Below, piece after piece: positions 1 through 11,904 of a stretch of DNA of 11,904 nucleotides; positions within the stretch are counted from its first letter, which is position 1, and each line of letters begins with the position of its first letter. The notes under the pieces are model-generated. The model saw nothing but the letters and a program-made list of their open reading frames with translations, had not been told where the DNA came from and made no database searches. The stretch is taken from the UHGV virus genome UHGV-2157276, one strand, 5' to 3'. The stretch is from a virus. The translations under genes were made by a program, and so were the position numbers.

Positions 1-1284
1 TTACTTCTTCGCCTCTGCAACCACTTTACTACCCACGCCGCGGTTATTGTATTCCCACATGCGGTTGTAGTTAGTGTCATTCAGATTGCGCTGTATTTCG
101 TCGTTATCATCTACGCTGCCGGTATTACCCGCAAACGGACGATTAGAGATCACCGCATCGGCCCACGGTTTAGCCGTGTTAAAACCTTCGTTGATGGCGC
201 TATCACGGATCACCACCTGACCGTTGGTATTGGCATCAACATCCAGCGAGCGGCCCAGTTGCGCCACACCATCACCGAAAGCATTGAAACGGCTGTTTAC
301 GGCGAGGAAACCGTAGTAAATGTTGGACAGCGTAGCCGGTGCAAACACATACGCTTCTTGCTGAGTACGTGAGTTCACCACGCGGAATTCGGTGTTATCG
401 AACACCACTGCGCCGCGACCAGAAACGATATCCACATCCCCTTCAATGTAGCTGTTGGTCACCAGCGTACGCGGCTGACGATTTGTTTCCAGACGGTTCT
501 GCACACCGCTGTTGGTGACAAAGAAGGTGTTCTGACGACCGAGAATGTTAACGTTGTTAATCTGTACCTGGTCACCATCAGTACGCAGTGCCACCGCCGG
601 ATGGTTACCTGCATCTACGCTATCGCCCAGCGTGTTTTCGATGGTCAGATTTTGCAGTTGCAGGCCATTGTTTTGTGACCAGAAGACCGCAGAGCAGAGA
701 ACACCGATACTGTCGCTGCGTTTGCTCTGGCAGCTATCGTACATATACCACGCTGGTTTACCTGGCATATATTTGCCGCGCGGGTTGACGTCGTGACGCC
801 AGTCGGCAGGGCTCATGCCACCATCAAGGGAAAGCCCAATCTTCACATCAATCGGTTTTTCACCTGTACCGTACAGAGTAATTCCACCCGGAGCGGCAGG
901 GACATATACCGTTCCCTGATACTCACCAGGCATCACGGCAATATACTGGCGCTTGTTGGTACGCTTGATAATTGCCGCATCTACCGCCGCCTGAATCGTG
1001 GTATGCGTTACACCTTGAGTGCCCGCCGGGCCGACAACAAAGTCAGGTTGCGCAGGCAGGGTAATCGGGGAAGGATTCCACGCTGCAGCACCTGGTGTCA
1101 GGGATGCAAAATAGTGTTGAGCATCGAAATTCTGCGCTTCTTTTGCCGACAGAATCGGGCGAGAAGAGGTACCAGGCGCGGTTTGATCAGAAGGACGTTG
1201 ATCGGGCGGGGTTGAGCTACAGGCGGTCAGCGTCACGCCAAAAGCCAATGCCAGCGCCAGACGGGAAACTGAAAATGTGTTCAC
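1..1284 (-). CDS. ybhC: YbhC-type lipoprotein (pectinesterase-like / acyl-CoA thioesterase family); host gene flanking the lambda attachment site
   Basis: 427-codon ORF on the minus strand, GTG start at 1282-1284 with GGAG 6 nt upstream, stop at 1-3. N-terminal signal peptide with lipobox LTAC. Sequence recognised from memory as E. coli YbhC. Confidence 0.85.
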   Translation of the reverse strand: MNTFSVSRLALALAFGVTLTACSSTPPDQRPSDQTAPGTSSRPILSAKEAQNFDAQHYFASLTPGAAAWNPSPITLPAQPDFVVGPAGTQGVTHTTIQAAVDAAIIKRTNKRQYIAVMPGEYQGTVYVPAAPGGITLYGTGEKPIDVKIGLSLDGGMSPADWRHDVNPRGKYMPGKPAWYMYDSCQSKRSDSIGVLCSAVFWSQNNGLQLQNLTIENTLGDSVDAGNHPAVALRTDGDQVQINNVNILGRQNTFFVTNSGVQNRLETNRQPRTLVTNSYIEGDVDIVSGRGAVVFDNTEFRVVNSRTQQEAYVFAPATLSNIYYGFLAVNSRFNAFGDGVAQLGRSLDVDANTNGQVVIRDSAINEGFNTAKPWADAVISNRPFAGNTGSVDDNDEIQRNLNDTNYNRMWEYNNRGVGSKVVAEAKK

Positions 1285-1330: not shown

Positions 1331-1345
1331 GCTTTTTTATACTAA
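1331..1345. other. attL: lambda-type att common core at the host/prophage junction
   Basis: Exact 15-bp core GCTTTTTTATACTAA. Left flank is ybhC upstream DNA (B arm); right flank 1346-1418 is A/T-rich lambda P'-arm-like sequence running directly into the int stop codon. Confidence 0.8.
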
Positions 1346-1418
1346 GTTGGCATTATAAAAAAGCATTGCTTATCAATTTGTTGCAACGAACAGGTCACTA
1401 TCAGTCAAAATAAAATCA

Positions 1419-2489
1419 TTATTTGATTTCAATTTTGTCCCACTCCCTGCCTCTGTCATCACGATACTGTGATGCCATGGTGTCCGACTTATGCCCGAGA
1501 AGATGTTGAGCAAATTTATCGCTTATCTGCTTCTCATAGAGTCTTGCAGACAAACTGCGCAACTCGTGAAAGGTTGGCGGATCCCCTTCGAAGGAGAGAC
1601 CTGATGCTTTTCGTGCGCGCATAAAATACCTTGATACTGTGCCGGATGAAAGCGGTTCACGACGAGTAGATGCAATTATGGTTTCTCCGCCAAGAATCTT
1701 TTTGCATTTATCAAGTGTTTCCTTCATTGATATCCCGAGAGCATCAACATGCAATGTTGTTGGGATGGCAATTTTTACGCCTGTTTTGCTTTGCTCGACA
1801 TAAAGATATCCATCTACGATATCAGACCACTTCATTTCGCATAAATCACCAACTCGCTGCCCGGTAACAACAGCCAGTTCCATTGCAAGTCTAAGCCAAC
1901 ATGGTGATGATTCTGCTGCTTGATAAATTTTCAGGTATTCGTCAGCCGTAAGTCTTGATCTCCTTACCTCTGATTTTGCAGCGCGAGTGGCTGCGACCGG
2001 GTTTGTTGTTATATGGCCTTCAGCCATAGCCTCTCGGAATGCATCGCTCAGTGTTGATCTGATTAACTTGGCTGATGCCGCCTTTCCCTCGTCTATGTAT
2101 CCATTGAGCATTGCCGCAATTTCTTTTGTGGTGATGTCTTCAAGTGGAGCATCAGGCAGACCCCTCCTTATTGCTTTAATTTTGCTCATGTAATTTATGA
2201 GTGTCTTCTGCTTGATTCCTCTGCTGGCCAGGATTTTTTCGTAGCGATCAAGCCATGAATGTAACGTAACGGAATTATCACTGTTGATTCTCGCTGTCAG
2301 AGGCTTGTGTTTGTGTCCTGAAAATAACTCAATGTTGGCCTGTATAGCTTCAGTGATTGCGATTCGCCTGTCTCGGCCTAATCCAAACTCTTTACCCGTC
2401 CTTGGGTCCCTGTAGCAGTAATATCCATTGTTTCTTATATAAAGGTTAGGGGGTAAATCCCGGCGCTCATGACTTCGCCTTCTTCCCAT
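1419..2489 (-). CDS. int: Lambda-type integrase (tyrosine recombinase), 356 aa
   Basis: ORF starts MGRRRSHERRDLPPNLYIRNNGYYCYRDPRTGKEF and ends REWDKIEIK, matching lambda Int as I recall it. ATG at 2487-2489; overlaps xis by 23 nt as in lambda. Confidence 0.95.
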   Translation of the reverse strand: MGRRRSHERRDLPPNLYIRNNGYYCYRDPRTGKEFGLGRDRRIAITEAIQANIELFSGHKHKPLTARINSDNSVTLHSWLDRYEKILASRGIKQKTLINYMSKIKAIRRGLPDAPLEDITTKEIAAMLNGYIDEGKAASAKLIRSTLSDAFREAMAEGHITTNPVAATRAAKSEVRRSRLTADEYLKIYQAAESSPCWLRLAMELAVVTGQRVGDLCEMKWSDIVDGYLYVEQSKTGVKIAIPTTLHVDALGISMKETLDKCKKILGGETIIASTRREPLSSGTVSRYFMRARKASGLSFEGDPPTFHELRSLSARLYEKQISDKFAQHLLGHKSDTMASQYRDDRGREWDKIEIK

Positions 2490-2685
2490 TTCTGATCCTC
2501 TTCAAAAGGCTACCTGTTACTGGTCGATTTAAGTCAACCTTTACCGCTGATTCGTGGAACAGATATTCTCTTCCATCCTTAACCGGAGGAGGGAATATCC
2601 TGCATTCGCGCACCCATCGACGAACTGTTTCAAGGCTTCTTGGGCGTCGCTGGCGAGCGTTCCACTCCTGAAGTGTCAAGTACAT
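2467..2685 (-). CDS. xis: Excisionase Xis, 72 aa
   Basis: ORF MYLTLQEWNARQRRPRSLETVRRWVRECRIFPPPVKDGREYLFHESAVKVDLNRP matches lambda Xis; ATG at 2683-2685; 3' end overlaps the int start. Confidence 0.9.
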   Translation of the reverse strand: MYLTLQEWNARQRRPRSLETVRRWVRECRIFPPPVKDGREYLFHESAVKVDLNRPVTGSLLKRIRNGKKAKS

Positions 2686-2712
2686 CGCAAAGTCTCCGCA
2701 ATTACACGCAAG

Positions 2713-2733
2713 AAAAAACCGCCATCAGGCGGC
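2713..2733 (-). terminator. Candidate intrinsic terminator on the leftward transcript just upstream of xis
   Basis: On the minus strand, stem CCGCC / loop TGAT / GGCGG followed by TTTTTTC. The plus strand has no U-tract after the stem. Confidence 0.35.
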
Positions 2734-2844
2734 TTGGTGTTCTTTCAGTTCTTCAATTCGAATATTGGTTATGTCTGCATGTGCTATCTGCGCCCATATC
2801 ATCCAGTGGTCATAGCAGTCATTGATGTTCTCTGCTTCGATATC

Positions 2845-2874
2845 TGGCTGAAAGAGGGGGTTATTAAGGCGTGA
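2845..2874 (+). pseudogene. 3'-terminal remnant (about 10 codons) of a ybcO/nin-region gene whose stop overlaps the rusA start
   Basis: Frame ending [13 protein letters not shown] (stop 2872-2874) overlapping GTG 2871 of rusA resembles the C-terminus of DLP12 YbcO as I recall it. Upstream of about 2845 the frame is antisense xis-flanking DNA with no coherent coding signal. Exact boundary is uncertain. Confidence 0.3.
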
Positions 2875-3233
2875 ATACCTACAGCATCACATTACCCTGG
2901 CCTCCGAGCAATAATCGCTATTACCGCCATAATCGCGGGCGCACACACATCAGCGCAGAAGGGCAGGCATACCGCGATAACGTCACCCGAATCATTAAAA
3001 ACGCAATGCTGGATATCGGCCTGGCTATGCCAGTGAAAATCCGTATTGAGTGCCACATGCCGGATCGCCGTCGCCGTGACCTGGATAATCTGCAAAAAGC
3101 CGCTTTTGACGCACTCACCAAAGCAGGTTTCTGGCTGGATGATGCTCAGGTCGTTGATTACCGCGTTGTGAAGATGCCTGTTACCAAAGGTGGGAGGCTG
3201 GAACTGACCATCACCGAAATGGGGAATGAATGA
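2871..3233 (+). CDS. rusA: RusA-type Holliday junction resolvase, 120 aa
   Basis: GTG start at 2871. Protein [26 protein letters not shown]...[12 protein letters not shown] is recognised as RusA (nin-region resolvase of lambdoid phages / DLP12). Confidence 0.9.
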
Positions 3234-3370
3234 TGTTTGAGTTTAATATGGCAGAACTTCTTCGCCACCGCTGGATGCGCCTGCGCTTATATCGTTTCCC
3301 CAGTTCTGTTTTGACCGATTACCGAATACTGAGGAATTACGCCAAAACCCTGACAGGAGCAGGAGTATGA
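3230..3370 (+). CDS. ylcG: Small protein YlcG-like, 46 aa; not in the supplied ORF track
   Basis: ATGATG at 3230-3235 overlaps the rusA stop (3231-3233). Hand translation gives [46 protein letters not shown], stop TGA at 3368-3370. Matches DLP12 YlcG from memory. Confidence 0.6.
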
Positions 3371-3455
3371 AGTCAGAGATAACAATCAACTAATACTGTT
3401 TTATTGATTTTTGCTTGTAATTGGCGTTCTGGTCTGATTTTTGTGGAGTAAGTTG

Positions 3456-3839
3456 ATGCGTGATATTCAGATGGTTCTTGAGCGTTGGGGAGCGTGGGCG
3501 GCTAATAATCATGAAGATGTGACCTGGTCGTCCATTGCCGCCGGTTTTAAGGGATTAATTACTTCAAAAGTAAAATCTCGCCCGCAATGTTGTGACGATG
3601 ACGCGATGATCATTTGCGGGTGCATGGCCCGTCTGAAAAAGAACAACAGCGATTTGCACGATTTATTAGTAGATTATTATGTAGTCGGTATGACATTCAT
3701 GTCACTGGCAGGTAAGCATTGCTGCTCTGATGGTTATATCGGGAAAAGGTTACAGAAGGCTGAGGGTATAATTGAAGGGATGTTAATGGCATTAGATATC
3801 CGGTTAGAGATGGATATCGTTGTTAATAACTCTAATTAA
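3456..3839 (+). CDS. quuD: Late-gene antiterminator Q (QuuD-type), 127 aa
   Basis: ATG at 3456 preceded by GGAG (3445-3448, 7-nt spacer). Protein [24 protein letters not shown]...[11 protein letters not shown]. The ORF track starts at an upstream TTG (3441), which is less likely. Confidence 0.85.
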
Positions 3840-3849
3840 TATGCCAATT

Positions 3850-3891
3850 GTTTACTAAAAATTATTAAAAATGGGGCGTTGAGACGCCCCC
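3850..3891 (-). terminator. Intrinsic terminator for the minus-strand porin transcript
   Basis: Stem GGGGCGT / loop TGAG / ACGCCCC at 3873-3890; on the minus strand it is followed by ATTTTTAATAATTTTT. Confidence 0.5.
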
Positions 3892-3978
3892 AAAAATAAA
3901 GGGTAATATATAACAGAAGGTTTATATAGTTAGAAGCAAGGTTGTGCTCCTAAAGGAAGTGGCTTGAGGGAGCCACTT

Positions 3979-4012
3979 ATATGTTGGGGAGGCAAAGCCT
4001 CCCGCAACATAT
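3979..4012. terminator. Long stem-loop between Q and the nmpC 3' end; possible plus-strand terminator or mRNA-stabilising hairpin
   Basis: ATATGTTG-GGGAGGC / loop AAA / GCCTCCC-g-CAACATAT, a 15-bp stem with one bulge, followed on the plus strand by CTTTTAG. A second hairpin AAGTGGCT-tgaggg-AGCCACTT lies at 3957-3978. Confidence 0.4.
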
Positions 4013-4027
4013 CTTTTAGTAATCAAA

Positions 4028-5110
4028 TTAGAACTGGTAAACCATACCTACAGCAACGATATCATCGGTAGCAACGCCAGATGCTTTCGTGAAATCGCTC
4101 TTATCAATCAGGTTGATTTTGTAATCAACAAAAGTGGACATATTTTTGTTGAAGTAATAGGTTGCACCTACATCAATATATTCAACCAGGTCCTGATCAC
4201 CCCACGCACCCAAGTCTTTTCCTTTAGATTGCAGGTAAGCAACGGACGGACGCAGACCGAAGTCGAACTGATATTGTGCAACTACTTCGAAGTTTTGTGC
4301 TTTGTTGGCAATATGGTTATTACCAAAAACAGTCATGTTCTGGGTTTCAGAATAGGTGGTAGCCAGATAGATGTTGTTCGCATCATATTTCAGACCAGCT
4401 GCCCATACTTCAGCATTTTGACCAGATGCATTCAGGCTGTTGTTACCGTAGATAACCTGATTATTAGTGCGGTCAGATTTAGCATAGGTTGCACCTACAC
4501 CGAATCCTTCATACTCATAAGTAGTGGAGAAACCGAAACCATCACCATTAGCTTCAGTTACGTCAGTGCGGTCATTTTTACCCTGATACTGAGCAGCAAA
4601 GTTCAGACCATCAACCAGACCAAAGAAGTCATTGTTACGATAAGTTGCAACACCTGTGGTGCGACCAGTCATGAATACATCTGTTTGGGTCCAGGTATCG
4701 CCACCGAATTCTGGCAGAACGTCGGTCCATGCACCAATATCGTATGCTACACCGTAGTTACGGCCATAATCGATGGAGCCGTAGTCACCGAATTTCAGGC
4801 CAGCGAAGGCAAGACGGGTTTTATCTTTGGAGGAACCTTGAGATTCAGCGCGGTTGCCTTTGAATTCATATTCCCACTGACCGAAACCAGTCAGTTGATC
4901 GTTGATTTGGGTTTCACCTTTGAAGCCAAGACGGGCATAAGTAGTATCACCATCATCTGCATCATTAGAGGAGAAGTAGTGCTTAGCATTAACTTTCCCG
5001 TACAGATCCAGCTTGTTACTGTCTTTATTATAAATTTCAGCTGCCTGAGCAGACATCGCCATCAGTACTGATGCAGCTACAGCAGAAATTGCCACTGTTA
5101 ATTTTTTCAT
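4028..5110 (-). CDS. nmpC: General-diffusion porin of the OmpC/PhoE/NmpC family, apparently intact (360 aa)
   Basis: Start ATG at 5108-5110 gives [23 protein letters not shown] signal peptide then [16 protein letters not shown]; C-terminus ends VAVGMVYQF with the terminal Phe typical of porins. The ORF track's upstream start (5185) adds 25 non-porin residues. No IS interruption. Confidence 0.9.
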
Positions 5111-5140
5111 CGTGAGCCCTTTTTTTGAACTATTATTAAA

Positions 5141-5170
5141 AAATGATGTCACTGCAAATGATGTCACTGC
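5141..5170. repeat. Perfect tandem direct repeat, 2 x 15 bp (AAATGATGTCACTGC), 31-60 nt upstream of the nmpC start codon
   Basis: Read directly: 5141-5155 and 5156-5170 are identical. Confidence 0.85.
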
Positions 5171-5356
5171 GCGATAAATATTCATCTAATCAATGTGATT
5201 ATTTCAAGATGTAAGTTTTGGTTTCTCATTTGATTTGTGAAGTAGATCTCTATTTTTATCTGAACTTTTTCTATCGAATCCTATTCATGGCTCTTGGCTG
5301 AATAAAAATAAATCTATTAGCCAATTTATATTAATGGCTGTTATTTATAAGTGCTC

Positions 5357-5362
5357 TATAAT
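5357..5362 (+). promoter_or_regulatory. Candidate -10 hexamer of the late promoter (pR'-like)
   Basis: Perfect TATAAT on the plus strand about 190 nt upstream of the terminator at 5552-5584, similar spacing to lambda pR'/tR' (about 194-nt 6S RNA). No convincing -35 found. Confidence 0.3.
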
Positions 5363-5551
5363 TTGAAGATTCAATTTAAACCAGCTAAAAATAACGCTGG
5401 AAATTATTTGTTGGTTATTTGTTGAGATTTGCTTATGTATTTGTAGTGGTGTTTTCAATACTCGGTAGCATTCTCGCAAATATCATTTAGTGGTTTACGT
5501 ACGTAAAAAATTGGTTATGCTGTTAAGAGTGGTTACTTCGTCACACAGCTT

Positions 5552-5584
5552 AAACCCGCCGTCGAGCGGGTTTTTCCATTTTTT
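5552..5584 (+). terminator. Intrinsic terminator upstream of the lysis genes (tR'-like)
   Basis: AAACCCGC / loop CGTCGA / GCGGGTTT followed by TTTTTCCATTTTTT on the plus strand. Confidence 0.6.
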
Positions 5585-5712
5585 GAGTCTCGATATTAGC
5601 TGATAACCCAATACCTGAGTTATTCACTGACTCCGAGTCTGTTACGTTTCTGCTTTTTTGCGATACGTTGTATTCCCTCAATTTACACCCGCTTTGTCTG
5701 CGAGGTGGGGTT

Positions 5713-5928
5713 ATGAAATCCATGGATAAGTTAACAACGGGTGTCGCCTATGGCACCTCAGCAGGTAGTGCCGGTTACTGGTTTTTACAGCTGCTCGATA
5801 AAGTCACGCCCTCACAGTGGGCAGCAATAGGTGTGCTGGGTAGCCTGGTATTTGGCCTGCTGACGTACCTGACAAACCTTTATTTCAAGATTAAAGAAGA
5901 TAAGCGCAAGGCTGCGAGAGGTGAATAA
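5713..5928 (+). CDS. essD: Phage-21-type pinholin with dual-start motif (antiholin/holin), 71 aa
   Basis: ATG at 5713 preceded by [80 protein letters not shown]; two TM segments, Met1-Lys-Ser-Met4 dual start, charged C-terminus. The ORF track start (5668) is upstream with no RBS. Confidence 0.9.
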
Positions 5929-6425
5929 TGCCTCCATCATTACGAAAAGCCGTTGCTGCTGCTATTGGTGGCGGAGCAATTGCTATAGCATCAGTGTTAA
6001 TTACTGGCCCAAGTGGTAACGATGGTCTGGAAGGTGTCAGCTACGTACCATACAAAGATATCGTTGGCGTATGGACTGTATGTCACGGACACACCGGAAA
6101 AGACATCATGCTCGGTAAAACGTATACCAAAGCAGAATGCAAAGCACTCTTGAATAAAGACCTTGCCACTGTCGCCAGACAAATTAACCCGTACATCAAA
6201 GTCGATATACCGGAAACAACGCGCGGCGCTCTTTACTCATTCGTTTACAACGTGGGTGCTGGCAATTTCAGAACATCGACGCTTCTTCGCAAAATAAACC
6301 AGGGCGATATCAAAGGCGCATGTGATCAGCTACGTCGCTGGACATATGCTGGCGGTAAGCAATGGAAAGGTCTCATGACTCGTCGTGAGATTGAGCGTGA
6401 AATCTGTTTGTGGGGTCAGCAATGA
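5928..6425 (+). CDS. rrrD: SAR endolysin (T4-lysozyme-like, phage 21 R-type), 165 aa
   Basis: Start overlaps the holin stop (TAATG). N-terminal Gly/Ala-rich weakly hydrophobic segment [18 protein letters not shown] (signal-anchor-release domain), followed by an E..D..T motif region ([17 protein letters not shown]). Confidence 0.9.
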
Positions 6426-6883
6426 ACAGAGTAACCGCGATTATCTCCGCTCTGGTTATCTGCATCATCGTCTACCTGTCATGGGCTGTTAATCATTACC
6501 GTGATAACGCCATTACCTACAAAGCCCAGCGCGACAAAAATGCCAGAGAACTGAAGCTGGCGAACGCGGCAATTACTGACATGCAGATGCGTCAGCGTGA
6601 TGTTGCTGCGCTCGATGCAAAATACACGAAGGAGTTAGCTGATGCGAAAGCTGAAAATGATGCTCTGCGTGATGATGTTGCCGCTGGTCGTCGTCGGTTG
6701 CACATCAAAGCAGTCTGTCAGTCAGTGCGTGAAGCCACCACCGCCTCCGGCGTGGATAATGCAGCCTCCCCCCGACTGGCAGACACCGCTGAACGGGATT
6801 ATTTCACCCTCAGAGAGAGGCTGATCACTATGCAAAAACAACTGGAAGGAACCCAGAAGTATATTAATGAGCAGTGCAGATAG
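6422..6883 (+). CDS. rzpD: Spanin inner-membrane subunit Rz, 153 aa
   Basis: ATG at 6422 overlaps the endolysin stop (ATGA). N-terminal TM segment [19 protein letters not shown] then coiled-coil-like sequence. From the start of this gene the DNA appears lambda-like. Confidence 0.9.
6642..6824 (+). CDS. rzoD: Spanin outer-membrane lipoprotein Rz1, 60 aa, embedded in the +1 frame of Rz
   Basis: [20 protein letters not shown] lipoprotein signal with lipobox, Pro-rich mature region [16 protein letters not shown]; entirely inside Rz. Confidence 0.85.
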
Positions 6884-6884
6884 A

Positions 6885-6906
6885 GTTGCCCATATCGATG
6901 GGCAAC
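6885..6906. terminator. Hairpin between convergent Rz and bor; possible bidirectional terminator
   Basis: GTTGCCCAT / ATCG / ATGGGCAAC, 9-bp perfect arms, 2 nt after the Rz stop and 9 nt before the bor stop. U-tracts are weak on both strands. Confidence 0.4.
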
Positions 6907-6914
6907 TCATGCAA

Positions 6915-7208
6915 TTATTGTGAGCAATACACACGCGCTTCCAGCGGAGTATAAATGCCTAAAGTAATAAAACCGAGCAATCCATTTACGAATGTTTGCT
7001 GGGTTTCTGTTTTAACAACATTTTCTGCGCCGCCACAAATTTTGGCTGCATCGACAGTTTTCTTCTGCCCAATTCCAGAAACGAAGAAATGATGGGTGAT
7101 GGTTTCCTTTGGTGCTACTGCTGCCGGTTTGTTTTGAACAGTAAACGTCTGTTGAGCACATCCTGTAATAAGCAGGGCCAGCGCAGTAGCGAGTAGCATT
7201 TTTTTCAT
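6915..7208 (-). CDS. bor: Bor outer-membrane lipoprotein, 97 aa
   Basis: MKKMLLATALALLITGC signal with lipobox, then AQQTFTVQNKPAAVAPKETITHHFFVSGIG...; matches lambda Bor from memory. Confidence 0.9.
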   Translation of the reverse strand: MKKMLLATALALLITGCAQQTFTVQNKPAAVAPKETITHHFFVSGIGQKKTVDAAKICGGAENVVKTETQQTFVNGLLGFITLGIYTPLEARVYCSQ

Positions 7209-7498
7209 GGTGTTATTCCCGATGCTTTTTGAAGTTCGCAGAATCGTATGTGTAGAAAATTAAACAAACCCTAAACAATGAGTTGAAATTTCATATTGTT
7301 AATATTTATTAATGTATGTCAGGTGCGATGAATCGTCATTGTATTCCCGGATTAACTATGTCCACAGCCCTGACGGGGAACTTCTCTGCGGGAGTGTCCG
7401 GGAATAATTAAAAACGATGCACACAGGGTTTAGCGCGTACACGTATTGCATTATGCCAACGCCCCGGTGCTGACACGGAAGAAACCGGACGTTATGAT

Positions 7499-7909
7499 TT
7501 AGCGTGGAAAGATTTGTGTAGTGTTCTGAATGCTCTCAGTAAATAGTAATGAATTATCAAAGGTATAGTAATATCTTTTATGTTCATGGATATTTGTAAC
7601 CCATCGGAAAACTCCTGCTTTAGCAAGATTTTCCCTGTATTGCTGAAATGTGATTTCTCTTGATTTCAACCTATCATAGGACGTTTCTATAAGATGCGTG
7701 TTTCTTGAGAATTTAACATTTACAACCTTTTTAAGTCCTTTTATTAACACGGTGTTATCGTTTTCTAACACGATGTGAATATTATCTGTGGCTAGATAGT
7801 AAATATAATGTGAGACGTTGTGACGTTTTAGTTCAGAATAAAACAATTCACAGTTTAAATCTTTTCGCACTTGATCGAATATTTCTTTAAAAATGGCAAC
7901 CTGAGCCAT
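7499..7909 (-). CDS. ybcV: YbcV-like protein (DUF1398 family), function unknown; 136 aa from the best-supported start
   Basis: ORF on minus strand; the ATG at 7907-7909 ([11 protein letters not shown]...) has AAGG 8 nt upstream. In-frame upstream starts at 7951 (ATG) and 8032 (GTG) lack an RBS. AT-rich gene. Confidence 0.7.
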
Positions 7910-8194
7910 TGGTAAAACCTTCCATGTGATACGAGGGCGCGTAGTTTGCATTATCGTTTTTATCGTTTCAATCTGGTCTGACCTCTTTGTGTTTTGTTGA
8001 TGATTTATGTCAAATATTAGGAATGTTTTCACTTAATAGTATTGGTTGCGTAACAAAGTGCGGTCCTGCTGGCATTCTGGAGGGAAATACAACCGACAGA
8101 TGTATGTAAGGCCAACGTGCTCAAATCTTCATACAGAAAGATTTGAAGTAATATTTTAACCGCTAGATGAAGAGCAAGCGCATGGAGCGACAAA

Positions 8195-8401
8195 ATGAAT
8201 AAAGAACAATCTGCTGATGATCCCTCCGTGGATCTGATTCGTGTAAAAAATATGCTTAATAGCACCATTTCTATGAGTTACCCTGATGTTGTAATTGCAT
8301 GTATAGAACATAAGGTGTCTCTGGAAGCATTCAGAGCAATTGAGGCAGCGTTGGTGAAGCACGATAATAATATGAAGGATTATTCCCTGGTGGTTGACTG
8401 A
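8195..8401 (+). CDS. ybcW: YbcW-like small protein, 68 aa, function unknown
   Basis: ATG at 8195 with GGAG 7 nt upstream; [68 protein letters not shown]. Confidence 0.7.
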
Positions 8402-8565
8402 TCACCATAACTGCTAATCATTCAAACTATTTAGCCTGTGACAGAGCCAACACGCAGTCTGTCACTGTCAGGAAAGTGGTAAAACTGCAACTCAATTACT
8501 GCAATGCCCTCGTAATTAAGTGAATTTACAATATCGTCCTGTTCGGAGGGAAGAACGCGGGATGT

Positions 8566-8760
8566 TCATTCTTCATCACTTTTAATTGATGTATATGCTC
8601 TCTTTTCTGACGTTAGTCTCCGACGGCAGGCTTCAATGACCCAGGCTGAGAAATTCCCGGACCCTTTTTGCTCAAGAGCGATGTTAATTTGTTCAATCAT
8701 TTGGTTAGGAAAGCGGATGTTGCGGGTTGTTGTTCTGCGGGTTCTGTTCTTCGTTGACAT
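8566..8760 (-). CDS. ylcI: YlcI-like small protein (64 aa) with predicted ribbon-helix-helix DNA-binding fold
   Basis: MSTKNRTRRTTTRNIRFPNQMIEQINIALEQKGSGNFSAWVIEACRRRL: basic N-terminal tail, beta-strand NIRFP, helix, G-x-N/S turn, second helix. This is the RHH (CopG/Arc/ParD-like) pattern. Confidence 0.7.
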   Translation of the reverse strand: MSTKNRTRRTTTRNIRFPNQMIEQINIALEQKGSGNFSAWVIEACRRRLTSEKRAYTSIKSDEE

Positions 8761-8959
8761 GAGGTTGCCCCGTATTCAGTGTCGCTGATTTGTATTGTCT
8801 GAAGTTGTTTTTACGTTAAGTTGATGCAGATCAATTAATACGATACCTGCGTCATAATTGATTATTTGACGTGGTTTGATGGCGTAGATGCACGTTGTGA
8901 CATGTAGATGATAATTATTATCATTTTGCGGGTCCTTTCCGGCGATCCGACAGGTTACG

Positions 8960-8971
8960 GGGCGGCGACCT
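8960..8971. other. cosN: lambda 12-nt cohesive-end site (GGGCGGCGACCT), flanked by cosQ-like and cosB-like sequence
   Basis: Exact GGGCGGCGACCT preceded by ...GATCCGACAGGTTACG (lambda right end) and followed by TCGCGGGTTTTCGCTATTTATGAAAATTTTCCGG (lambda left end). Confidence 0.85.
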
Positions 8972-9148
8972 CGCGGGTTTTCGCTATTTATGAAAATTTT
9001 CCGGTTTAAGGCGTTTCCGTTCTTCTTCGTCATAACTTAATGTTTTTATTTAAAATACCCTCTGAAAAGAAAGGAAGCGACAGGTGCTGAAAGCGAGCTT
9101 TTTGGCCTCTGTCGTTTCCTTTCTCTGTTTTTGTCCGTGGAATGAACA

Positions 9149-9694
9149 ATGGAAGTCAACAAAAAGCAGCTGGCTGACATTTTCGGTGCGAGTATCCGTA
9201 CCATTCAGAACTGGCAGGAACAGGGAATGCCCGTTCTGCGAGGCGGTGGCAAGGGTAATGAGGTGCTTTATGACTCTGCCGCCGTCATAAAATGGTATGC
9301 CGAAAGGGATGCTGAAATTGAGAACGAAAAGCTGCGCCGGGAGGTTGAAGAACTGCGGCAGGCCAGCGAGGCAGATCTCCAGCCAGGGACTATTGAGTAC
9401 GAACGCCATCGACTTACGCGTGCGCAGGCCGACGCACAGGAGCTGAAAAATGCCAGAGACTCCGCTGAAGTGGTGGAAACCGCATTCTGTACTTTCGTGC
9501 TGTCGCGGATCGCAGGTGAAATTGCCAGTATTCTCGACGGGATCCCCCTGTCGGTGCAGCGGCGTTTTCCGGAACTGGAAAACCGACATGTTGATTTCCT
9601 GAAACGGGATATCATCAAAGCCATGAACAAAGCAGCCGCGCTGGATGAACTGATACCGGGGTTGCTGAGTGAATATATCGAACAGTCAGGTTAA
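9149..9694 (+). CDS. nu1: Terminase small subunit Nu1, 181 aa, full length
   Basis: MEVNKKQLADIFGASIRTIQNWQEQGMPVLRGGGKGNEVLYDSAAVIKWYAERDAEIENEKLRR...; N-terminal winged-HTH. Overlaps the A start by 26 nt as in lambda. Confidence 0.95.
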   Translation: MEVNKKQLADIFGASIRTIQNWQEQGMPVLRGGGKGNEVLYDSAAVIKWYAERDAEIENEKLRREVEELRQASEADLQPGTIEYERHRLTRAQADAQELKNARDSAEVVETAFCTFVLSRIAGEIASILDGIPLSVQRRFPELENRHVDFLKRDIIKAMNKAAALDELIPGLLSEYIEQSG

Positions 9695-10730
9695 CAGGCT
9701 GCGGCATTTTGTCCGCGCCGGGCTTCGCTCACTGTTCAGGCCGGAGCCACAGACCGCCGTTGAATGGGCGGATGCTAATTACTATCTCCCGAAAGAATCC
9801 GCATACCAGGAAGGGCGCTGGGAAACACTGCCCTTTCAGCGGGCCATCATGAATGCGATGGGCAGCGACTACATCCGCGAGGTGAATGTGGTGAAGTCTG
9901 CCCGTGTTGGTTATTCCAAAATGCTGTTGGGTGTTTATGCCTACTTCATAGAGCATAAGCAGCGCAACACACTTATCTGGTTGCCGACGGATGGTGATGC
10001 CGAGAACTTTATGAAAACCCACGTTGAGCCGACCATCCGCGATATTCCGTTGCTGCTGGCGCTGGCTCCGTGGTATGGCAAAAAGCACCGGGATAACACG
10101 CTCACCATGAAGCGTTTTTCCAATGGTCGTGGCTTCTGGTGCCTGGGCGGTAAAGCGGCAAAAAACTACCGTGAAAAGTCGGTGGATGTGGCGGGTTATG
10201 ATGAACTTGCTGCCTTTGATGAGGATATTGAACAGGAAGGCTCTCCGACGTTCCTTGGCGACAAACGTATTGAAGGCTCGGTCTGGCCAAAGTCCATCCG
10301 TGGCTCCACCCCCAAAGTGAGAGGCACCTGCCAGATTGAGCGTGCAGCCAGTGAATCCCCGCATTTTATGCGTTTTCATGTTGCCTGTCCGCACTGCGGG
10401 GAGGAGCAGTACCTTAAATTTGGCGATAAAGAGACGTCGTTTGGCCTCAAATGGACGCCGGATGATCCCTCCAGCGTGTTTTATCTCTGCGAACATAATG
10501 CCTGCGTCATCCGCCAGCAGGAACTGGACTTCACTGATGCCCGTTATATCTGCGAAAAGACCGGGATCTGGACCCGTGATGGCATTCTCTGGTTTTCGTC
10601 ATCCGGTGAAGAGATTGAGCCGCCGGACAGCGTGACCTTTCACATCTGGACGGCGTACAGCCCGTTCACCACCTGGGTGCAGATTGTCAAAGACTGGATG
10701 AAAACGAAAGGGGATACCTTCTGCCCGTAA
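9669..10730 (+). pseudogene. A: Terminase large subunit gpA, N-terminal 350 of about 641 codons, truncated at a deletion junction
   Basis: MNISNSQVNRLRHFVRAGLRSLF...[14 protein letters not shown] then 3 unrelated codons (FCP) and stop. Walker-A-like KSARVGYSK is present; the C-terminal nuclease half is absent. Confidence 0.85.
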
Positions 10731-11904
10731 GGTGAATGGTAAGGCGCTTTCAGCGGATATAACACTGACGCCGAAAGATATTGGTACGCTTAACTCAACA
10801 ACAATGTCATTCAGCGGTGGTGCTGGTTGGTTCAAATTAGCAACGGTAACCATGCCACAGGCGAGTTCTGTTGTTTCAATTACGTTGATTGGTGGCGCGG
10901 GATTTAACGTGGGGTCACCTCAACAGGCAGGTATATCTGAACTTGTTTTGCGTGCAGGTAATGGTAATCCGAAGGGGATTACTGGTGCTTTATGGCAGCG
11001 CACATCGACAGGGTTTACAAATTTTGCCTGGGTCAATACATCTGGTGATACTTACGATATTTACGTTGCAATCGGAAATTATGCGACTGGTGTAAATATT
11101 CAATGGGATTATACCAGTAATGCCAGCGTGACGATTCATACGTCACCAGCATATTCTGCTAATAAGCCGGAAGGGTTAACGGACGGTACAGTTTATTCAC
11201 TCTATACGCCATCAGAGCAGTTTTATCCGCCTGGCGCACCAATCCCGTGGCCATCAGATACCGTTCCGTCTGGCTATGCCCTGATGCAGGGGCAGACTTT
11301 TGACAAATCTGCATACCCGAAACTTGCAGCCGCTTATCCGTCAGCCGTGATCCCTGATATGCGTGGCTGGACGATTAAGGGCAAACCCGCCAGTGGTCGT
11401 GCCGTATTGTCTCAGGAACAGGACGGCATTAAATCGCACACCCACAGCGCCAGCGCATCCAGTACGGATTTGGGGACGAAAAACACATCGTCGTTTGATT
11501 ACGGAACCAAATCCACGAATAACACCGGGGCGCATACCCATAGTATTAGCGGGACTGCAAATAGTGCCGGTGCGCACCAACACAAGAGTTCCGGTGCATT
11601 TGGTGGCACGAACACGAGCATTTTCCCTAATGGTTATACCGCGATTTCAAATCTAAGCGCGGGGATTATGAGCACAACAAGCGGTAGTGGCCAGACTCGT
11701 AATGCAGGGAAGACATCATCAGATGGTGCTCATACCCACTCGCTGTCCGGCACTGCTGCAAGCGCAGGCGCACATGCACATACTGTCGGTATTGGTGCTC
11801 ATACGCACTCCGTTGCGATTGGCTCACACGGACACACCATCACCGTTAACGCTGCTGGTAACGCGGAAAACACCGTCAAAAACATCGCATTTAACTATAT
11901 TGTG
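10720..11904 (+). pseudogene. stf: Side tail fibre (Stf-type) gene fragment, 5'-truncated, open to the end of the window
   Basis: Frame 1 is open from 10702 to 11904 and is not in the ORF track because it has no stop. Hand translation ends ...[60 protein letters not shown], the His-x-His repeat C-terminal region of lambda-family Stf. Possible internal starts are GTG 10732 and ATG 10804. Confidence 0.75.

Follow-up and report, generated by a model that had tools for sequence, protein, structure and literature searches.

Attachment site and retained genes

The window analyzed here, which is the whole 11,904-nt stretch of virus genome UHGV-2157276, contains the host gene ybhC, a lambda-type attachment site with int and xis, a block of late genes that extends from rusA through Q, a porin gene, a lysis cassette and bor to cos and Nu1, a truncated gene for the large terminase subunit (A') and the C-terminal part of a side tail-fibre gene (stf') (Table 1). 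Coordinates refer to this window unless a locus label (L001, L020 etc.) is given. Our results indicate that the window very probably contains the left four-fifths of a cryptic lambdoid prophage, here called the element, which occupies the attachment site of lambda, with ybhC on one side and ybhB/bio on the other.

The 15-bp lambda core GCTTTTTTATACTAA was found once in the window, against a chance expectation of 0.04. To the left of this core lies the B arm of Escherichia coli attB, just downstream of ybhC, a gene that belongs to the flank outside the element and ends 46 bp from the core. To the right lies a P' arm which did not differ from that of lambda and which we take to carry, as in lambda, the Int arm-type sites P'1-3 and the IHF site H'. 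By its sequence, this B-O-P' hybrid is the attL expected on the gal side of a lambda-type prophage. The Int protein was identical to lambda Int at 351 of 356 residues (98.6%), with all six catalytic residues (R212, K235, H308, R311, H333 and Y342) kept, and Xis was identical to lambda Xis at 71 of 72 residues (98.6%). BLAST analysis aligned the segment from 1331 to 2845 with lambda 27724-29238 at 98.0% identity. Thus, the core, the P' arm, Int and Xis all have the lambda-type specificity, which bears out the view of a first-pass annotation of this DNA, made from the sequence alone, that a bona fide attL core is accompanied here by lambda int and xis.

Nin-region and late genes begin shortly after xis. 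This proximity had been recognized in the first-pass annotation, but the distance that it gave (about 350 bp) was too long, as the start of xis at 2685 and the start of rusA at 2871 are 186 bp apart. From rusA onward the gene order mirrors that of the DLP12 prophage of strain K-12, as had also been proposed, and the two are collinear from 2841 to 4069 (98.2% identity) and from 4086 to 9976 (96.0% identity). The sole break is caused by the insertion sequence (IS) element IS5 in nmpC of K-12; the porin gene of the window is collinear with nmpC but lacks IS5. The late regulation and lysis genes Q, S and R are assigned to types other than those of lambda, since none of their products, Q included, aligned with the lambda proteins and all were 99-100% identical to the DLP12 versions. 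A mosaic boundary was found at 6422, at the border of R and Rz: the upstream DNA is of the DLP12/phage 21 type without similarity to lambda, and lambda identity begins exactly at the Rz start codon, which corresponds to lambda 45966. From there, 6422-8959 aligned with lambda 45966-48502 at 99.3% identity, and this match is joined across cos to a further one, in which 8960-10717 aligned with lambda 1-1759 at 97.7% identity. Collinearity with lambda had been predicted for about 1331-2845 and about 6420-10718, with sharp breaks at the two junctions, and this was observed.

The cos region is essentially intact. The 12-nt cohesive-end sequence GGGCGGCGACCT is located at 8960-8971, and cosN, R3 and R1 were identical to those of lambda, while R2, a terminase-binding repeat of cosB, carries a single A-to-G change at 9077 that is shared with E. 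coli A14 but not with lambda, DLP12 or PhiR26_1. The exact Nu1 protein is indexed in 32,489 blocks, mostly from intact prophages. The A' product has 353 residues versus 641 in lambda, and Pfam analysis detected only the GpA_ATPase domain in it and no GpA_nuclease domain, so that A' could not cut cos. With the exception of A, the retained genes are full length and have no internal stops, in agreement with the initial description of the remainder as an integration module, rusA, Q, a lysis cassette, cos, Nu1 and several cargo genes. Neither cI, cro, N, O and P nor head or tail-shaft genes were found in the window. The late promoter and the qut site were not located by a consensus scan and reading of the sequence; an Rfam scan of the whole window at E values up to 0.1 detected no RNA family, and a tRNA/tmRNA scan of the window was likewise negative.

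Table 1. Features of the 11,904-nt window and the evidence used to assign them (ORF, open reading frame).
Feature	Position	Strand	Evidence or description
ybhC, host gene on the gal side of attλ	1-1284	-	427-aa ORF; annotated ybhC in A14
attL common core (B-O-P')	1331-1345	+	Exact 15-mer, single match
P' arm of attL	1346-1418	+	Matches lambda from 27739 to the end of int at 100% identity
int, lambda-type tyrosine integrase, intact	1419-2489	-	356 aa; Pfam Arm-DNA-bind_1 and Phage_integrase
xis, excisionase, intact	2467-2685	-	72 aa; Pfam Exc
orf55' (lambdap35 homologue), 3' fragment cut by deletion 1	2725-2842	-	A14 gene at L001 14725-14892
Junction 1, deletion scar orf55'/ybcO'	2841-2842	.	Comparison with A14
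ybcO', last ~30 nt, nin-region remnant	2843-2874	+	A14 ybcO at L001 20465-20755
rusA, Holliday-junction resolvase	2871-3233	+	120 aa; Pfam RusA; 118/120 identical to K-12 RusA
ylcG	3230-3370	+	46 aa; 43/46 identical to K-12 YlcG
Q, late antiterminator, DLP12 QuuD type	3456-3839	+	127/127 identical to K-12 QuuD; Pfam Phage_antitermQ PF06530
NmpC/OmpD-type porin gene (moron)	4028-5110	-	360 aa; Pfam Porin_1, E = 3e-153; uninterrupted
15-bp tandem duplication, AAATGATGTCACTGC x2	5141-5170	.	15-bp insertion relative to A14
S, phage 21-type holin	5713-5928	+	71/71 identical to K-12 EssD; Pfam 'Bacteriophage P21 holin S'
R, endolysin, RrrD/phage 21 type	5928-6425	+	165 aa; 163/165 identical to K-12 RrrD; Pfam Phage_lysozyme
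Rz, spanin	6422-6883	+	151/153 identical to lambda Rz
Rz1, embedded in Rz	6642-6824		59/60 identical to lambda Rz1
bor, lipoprotein (moron)	6915-7208	-	97/97 identical to lambda Bor
ybcV/lambdap78 (DUF1398)	7499-8032	-	175/177 identical to lambda protein; Pfam DUF1398
ybcW/lambdap79	8195-8401	+	68/68 identical to K-12 and to lambda
ylcI (DUF3950)	8566-8760	-	64/64 identical to K-12 YlcI
cos region (cosQ, cosN, cosB)	8900-9140	+	Aligned with lambda, DLP12, PhiR26_1 and A14
Nu1, small terminase subunit, intact	9149-9694	+	181 aa; 180/181 identical to lambda Nu1
A', truncated large terminase	9669-10730	+	gpA residues 1-349 plus 4 foreign codons
Junction 2, deletion scar A'/stf'	10711-10717	.	Terminase homology to 10717; stf homology from 10711
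stf', C-terminal ~400 codons of side tail-fibre gene	10714-11904	+	397-codon open frame that leaves the window

Deletion scars on either side of the late block

The late block is bounded by two junctions. At junction 2, terminase A runs into a tail-fibre fragment, as had been noticed initially. The overlap of the two homologies is an exact TAC, or up to 7 bp (GGGATAC) if one gap is allowed; the fusion is out of frame, so that A' terminates four codons on, and stf is entered at about codon 589 of 986. The stf' product matched residues 588-983 of an intact Stf of 986 aa at 87.8% identity and contains the Pfam families Collar and Phage_fiber. A contiguous junction 2 was found in 11 complete E. 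coli genomes and at all of the loci L020-L029.

At junction 1, the comparison was made with E. coli A14, the closest complete genome, which matched 1-2842 at 100% and 2841-11904 at 99.8% identity and carries, between both matched pieces, 5,879 bp that are absent from the window. Identity to A14 ends at L001 14842, inside orf55, and ORF55 of phage 434 was matched up to 2845. The microhomology common to both parental flanks is limited to TA (2 bp), and no IS element is present at the deletion scars. Junction 1 was contiguous in none of 5,426 complete E. coli genomes, and an exact 37-mer across it had no match in GTDB representative genomes or JGI metagenome contigs. A look-up of the exact A' protein led to two independent assemblies in which junction 1 is present, L020 (an ENA metagenome scaffold of 265 kb) and L022 (GCA_017732875.1); over the whole window, L020 was 99.975% identical. 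Because the junctions are present in independent assemblies, both are inherited deletion scars and not assembly artefacts. Furthermore, neither junction was crossed by any record among 50,697 phage genomes, in which all matches stopped at 2845 and 10717, respectively; an intact phage with naturally contiguous junction sequences, which would have spoken against a deletion, was thus not encountered in this collection.

The DNA that A14 retains at junction 1 consists of decayed early-left genes, a recT'/ren' (bet'/ren') fusion, two hypothetical genes, ybcN, ninE and ybcO, and it bears scars of its own (L001 17569-18041). In one of these, lambda 30737 is joined to 32001, with the removal of orf61 through exo, and in the other lambda 32473 is joined to 40449, which created the bet'/ren' fusion and removed gam through P. 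The DNA with both of these older scars is wholly absent from the window. Since sister genomes retain the bet'/ren' fusion and nin genes at this position, the left gap arose by at least two successive deletions; the fusion in A14 implies that the immunity and replication region was already gone in the shared ancestor, and that the lineage of the window lost the debris later.

We also considered that junction 1 might have created a promoter for rusA, as IS insertions did in K-12. A consensus scan gave no support for this: no sigma-70-like match was found upstream of rusA on the + strand, and promoter-like sites were fewer than in shuffled sequence.

The complete element and its right end

The L020 scaffold reaches bioD and thus shows the element in full, with the attL core at L020 1663 and the attR core at 16075, a distance from core to core of 14,412 bp. 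Inspection of the attR side for a second core had been proposed in the first-pass annotation; in L020 this core reads ACTTTTTTATACTAA and is followed by the bacterial B' arm (cttgagcg), next to ybhB. An attR with P arm and B' arm next to ybhB was also found in A14, and in these near-identical sequences the integration is bounded by hybrid att sites on both sides. To the right of the window, L020 contains the end of stf', tfa, 1.5 kb of b-region DNA, a gene of the AraC family, IS3-family remnants and the P arm. The b-region DNA was 99% identical to that of the viable phages mEp332, PhiR70_1 and ev099.

The att-bounded element of L020 contains none of cI, cro, O and P and no genes for the capsid or the tail shaft, any of which would have contradicted a reduced prophage. 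The claims that the leftward operon, immunity and replication genes between xis and the nin region are missing, and that the head and tail genes between A and stf are missing, therefore hold for the window and for the L020 element as well. Genes essential for lytic growth and for the particle are lacking.

Over the Xis, Fis and IHF-H2 sites the P arm of attR departs from the lambda sequence, and the core starts with A instead of G. The idea that these two features reflect decay was rejected, as mEp332 has the same arm and the same base. The gene for the AraC-family regulator, located near attR (L020 14334-15077), has a counterpart in mEp332 (44454-45206), and its product was only 29% identical to AppY, whose gene takes the corresponding place in DLP12. 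A second 15-mer that resembles the att core, GGTTTTTTATACTGA, was observed with 2 mismatches in the b region of L001 (31787-31801), just ahead of the AraC-type gene; either chance or a secondary site could account for it.

Ancestor and proposed history of the element

The viable phage mEp332 (PV340541; 46.2 kb) has the same architecture from att to att, and its segments 1-1516, 14170-18575, 18864-21032 and 41693-46206 were collinear with the element at 94-99% identity. Relative to mEp332, the element lacks 1517-14169 (~12.65 kb; early-left, immunity, replication and left nin DNA) and about 21033-41190 (~20 kb; the 3' half of A, heads, tails, J and the 5' part of stf). The viable phage PhiR26_1 was collinear over 2841-10717. 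Gene content and order are lambdoid, with collinear segments in lambda, DLP12, PhiR26_1 and mEp332, and these comparisons indicate that the element descends from a mosaic lambdoid phage similar to mEp332 and not from lambda itself. The presence of a lambda-type int next to ybhC, to which attention had been drawn initially and which is supported by the attB B arm and the ybhC flank, can be understood in the same way: a lambda int located at attλ and followed by late genes of the DLP12 type is a native mosaic of viable lambdoid phages.

We propose that the ancestral phage would have combined lambda-type att, int and xis with a nin-Q-porin-S-R segment of the DLP12/phage 21 type and a lambda-type Rz-bor-cos-Nu1-A segment. 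At least three successive illegitimate deletions, each at 2-7 bp of microhomology and with no IS element at the scars, reduced it to the present form. One lost region, comprising early-left, immunity, replication and left nin genes, was removed in at least two steps, of which the bet'/ren' fusion would be the first and the 5.9-kb orf55'/ybcO' deletion a later one; the other comprised all genes for head and tail together with the flanking 3' half of A and 5' part of stf. The remaining 14.4 kb would support neither repression nor replication, cos cutting or particle assembly. As repressor, replication and morphogenesis genes and the terminase nuclease are all missing, the gene content and the biology of lambda imply that the element should not be inducible as a phage.

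Some functions might nevertheless persist. The int and xis genes are probably silent, as pL/N and pI/CII are gone. Excision is conceivable because int, xis and both att sites look intact, and it would possibly occur if Int and Xis were expressed or were supplied by a related phage. In lambdoid lysogens the porin gene and bor have promoters of their own, and as autonomous morons they may be expressed here. We infer, moreover, that the Q-S-R-Rz-cos-Nu1 block could donate alleles to infecting lambdoid phages by homologous recombination; DLP12 (qsr') of K-12 is documented to recombine with such phages.

Distribution and continuing decay at the lambda attachment site

A lambda-type int adjoins ybhC in 1,920 of the 5,426 complete E. 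coli genomes, and 845 indexed blocks of public assemblies contain the exact A' protein. Other outcomes are found at the same site: in Res13-Lact-EB12-05, the full head and tail operon is kept and the early region was lost through IS1. Among sister copies of the element, L024 has IS1 in ybcV (7180-7877), L027 has a truncated Nu1 (9775-10026), and L029 has a shortened porin gene (4375-5409) and a split Rz (6753-7215). Judged from the sequences of these copies, such damage indicates ongoing neutral decay.

In the window and in L020, the 15-bp sequence AAATGATGTCACTGC occurs as a tandem pair that covers the DNA from 31 to 60 bp ahead of the porin start codon. A14, L022 and the other loci lack this duplication, which might change porin expression. 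The only differences between the window and L020 are three synonymous ones, at 9442, 9448 and 9500, within 59 bp of Nu1. At all three positions the window has the base of K-12 DLP12, which at 9500 is also that of lambda, and this patch suggests a short gene conversion from another lambdoid prophage of the same genome. Finally, the A'/stf'-tfa remnants in L023 (14319-21062) and L028 (13802-21062) have a right flank other than ybhB/bio, namely the zinT region in one and a Rac-like integrase with exonuclease VIII in the other. The arrangement of these flanks suggests chromosomal rearrangements through prophage homology.

Alternative explanations

No observation contradicts the reading as a cryptic prophage, and the uncertainties that remain are of three kinds. 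All 15 retained genes are intact, which fits recent decay but would also fit some selection for retention. The window ends inside stf', and its right end, attR included, is deduced from L020, L022 and A14. The order of the older deletions is likewise deduced from a handful of genomes and not from a phylogeny.

The first of these points leads to the alternative that survives best, namely that the element is a domesticated module under selection, in which the host profits from the Q-lysis cassette, the porin and bor and therefore keeps them. We consider this unlikely, though it deserves some weight. The supposed benefits are surface remodelling, serum resistance and lysis-linked release of extracellular DNA in biofilms, the last of which has been proposed for the lysis genes of DLP12. 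It would explain why 15 of 15 retained ORFs are full length despite three deletions around them, why the porin gene is uninterrupted, unlike nmpC of K-12, and why the A'-bearing remnant is widespread. However, the same genes have suffered random damage in L024, L027 and L029, and the copies diverge by ~0.2%, which is too little to measure purifying selection. Domestication is, in addition, compatible with a decaying cryptic prophage and not exclusive of it. There is only a small chance that the locus is a unit retained by the host or exploitable by a helper phage rather than a passive fossil. If this were true, the intact Int, Xis, attL, attR, cos and Nu1 would allow a co-infecting lambda-type phage to excise the remnant, and to recombine with it or co-package it and so spread porin, bor and lysis alleles, or, alternatively, host selection would maintain the set of Q, lysis, porin and bor genes.

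A helper-dependent mobile element is very improbable. According to this explanation, the element would be a phage satellite resembling a cos-type phage-inducible chromosomal island (PICI), which a lambdoid helper excises and packages. Its 14.4 kb is a satellite-like size, Int, Xis, attL, attR, cos and Nu1 are intact, and the P arm of attR is the native variant of a viable phage. Nevertheless, examination of the ORFs, Pfam matches and gene tables of the element revealed no primase, helicase or Rep, no alpA-type regulator and no gene for redirecting capsid or terminase, and the graded intermediates A14, lambdaCr and Res13 show an origin by random deletion of a full prophage. Moreover, by the well-established packaging rules of lambda, a lone 14-kb circle that has one cos and does not replicate falls far short of the packaging size. 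The PICI or satellite explanation was rejected, as the replication module and the regulator are missing. That an assembly error or a chimera produced one junction or both and hides a longer prophage is of negligible probability. Although junction 1 was not found in the complete E. coli genomes, the GTDB representatives and the JGI contigs, the independent assemblies L020 and L022 both carry it, and only one of them has the 15-bp duplication. Junction 2 was found at every locus retrieved and in 11 complete genomes, and overlaps of only 2-7 bp are not those of repeat collapses.

The reading as a decayed cryptic prophage has consequences for annotation: the locus should be described as a cryptic prophage remnant and not as a prophage, and its porin, bor and lysis genes as phage-derived cargo. 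It provides a clean and traceable case of stepwise prophage decay at the textbook lambda site, for which a living relative of the ancestor and intermediates are available. Remnants of this sort are known to provide a store of alleles with which infecting lambdoid phages can recombine. The significance beyond bookkeeping is small, and this kind of genomic fossil is well known.

Comparison with known systems

The closest likeness is to mEp332 and its relatives PhiR26_1, PhiR70_1 and ev099. Phage mEp332 shares with the element a lambda-type int, xis and orf55, then rusA, ylcG, a QuuD-type Q, an NmpC-type porin, S and R of the phage 21 type, Rz, ylcI, cos, Nu1 and A, and, in the right part, the stf C-terminus, tfa, the b region, the AraC-type regulator, a transposase remnant and the P-arm variant. 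The bor-ybcV-ybcW segment is lambda-like in the element but different in mEp332.

Phage lambda itself has the same att core and P' arm and matches Int and Xis at 98.6%, and Rz, Rz1, bor, lambdap78, lambdap79, cos, Nu1 and the 5' part of A are 97.7-99.3% identical. Unlike lambda, the element has Q, S and R of other families, a porin moron, and rusA in place of the ninG-Q region.

DLP12 (qsr') of K-12 shares the gene order from rusA to nohD at 96-98% nucleotide identity and, like the element, is defective, with intact lysis genes and a truncated large terminase fused towards tail-fibre genes. In contrast, DLP12 lies at argU with intD and carries IS5 in nmpC and IS3 in renD. No similarity to DLP12 was found to the left of 2841, and on the right it ends at 9976, while A extends here to 10717. 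As A is cut at 309 nt in DLP12 (aaaD fused to tfaD) versus 1,049 nt in the element, the deletions are independent.

At the same site, between ybhC and ybhB, the defective prophages lambdaB and lambdaCr have been published (PMC4395058; PMC3032704, Table 2). LambdaB of E. coli B (REL606, BL21) resembles the element in its site, its lambda-type int, xis and orf55 and its internal deletion, but in REL606 these three genes are fused to remnants of an unrelated late/terminase module. LambdaCr of E. coli Crooks (ATCC 8739) shares the site, and the accessions of its Int, Xis and orf55 proteins are those of the A14 form; it differs in that exo, bet, gam, kil and cIII are kept and all late genes were lost through IS1. 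Altogether, the element belongs to a lineage related to lambdaCr, as an allele in which decay has gone further, and is otherwise an ordinary cryptic lambdoid prophage.

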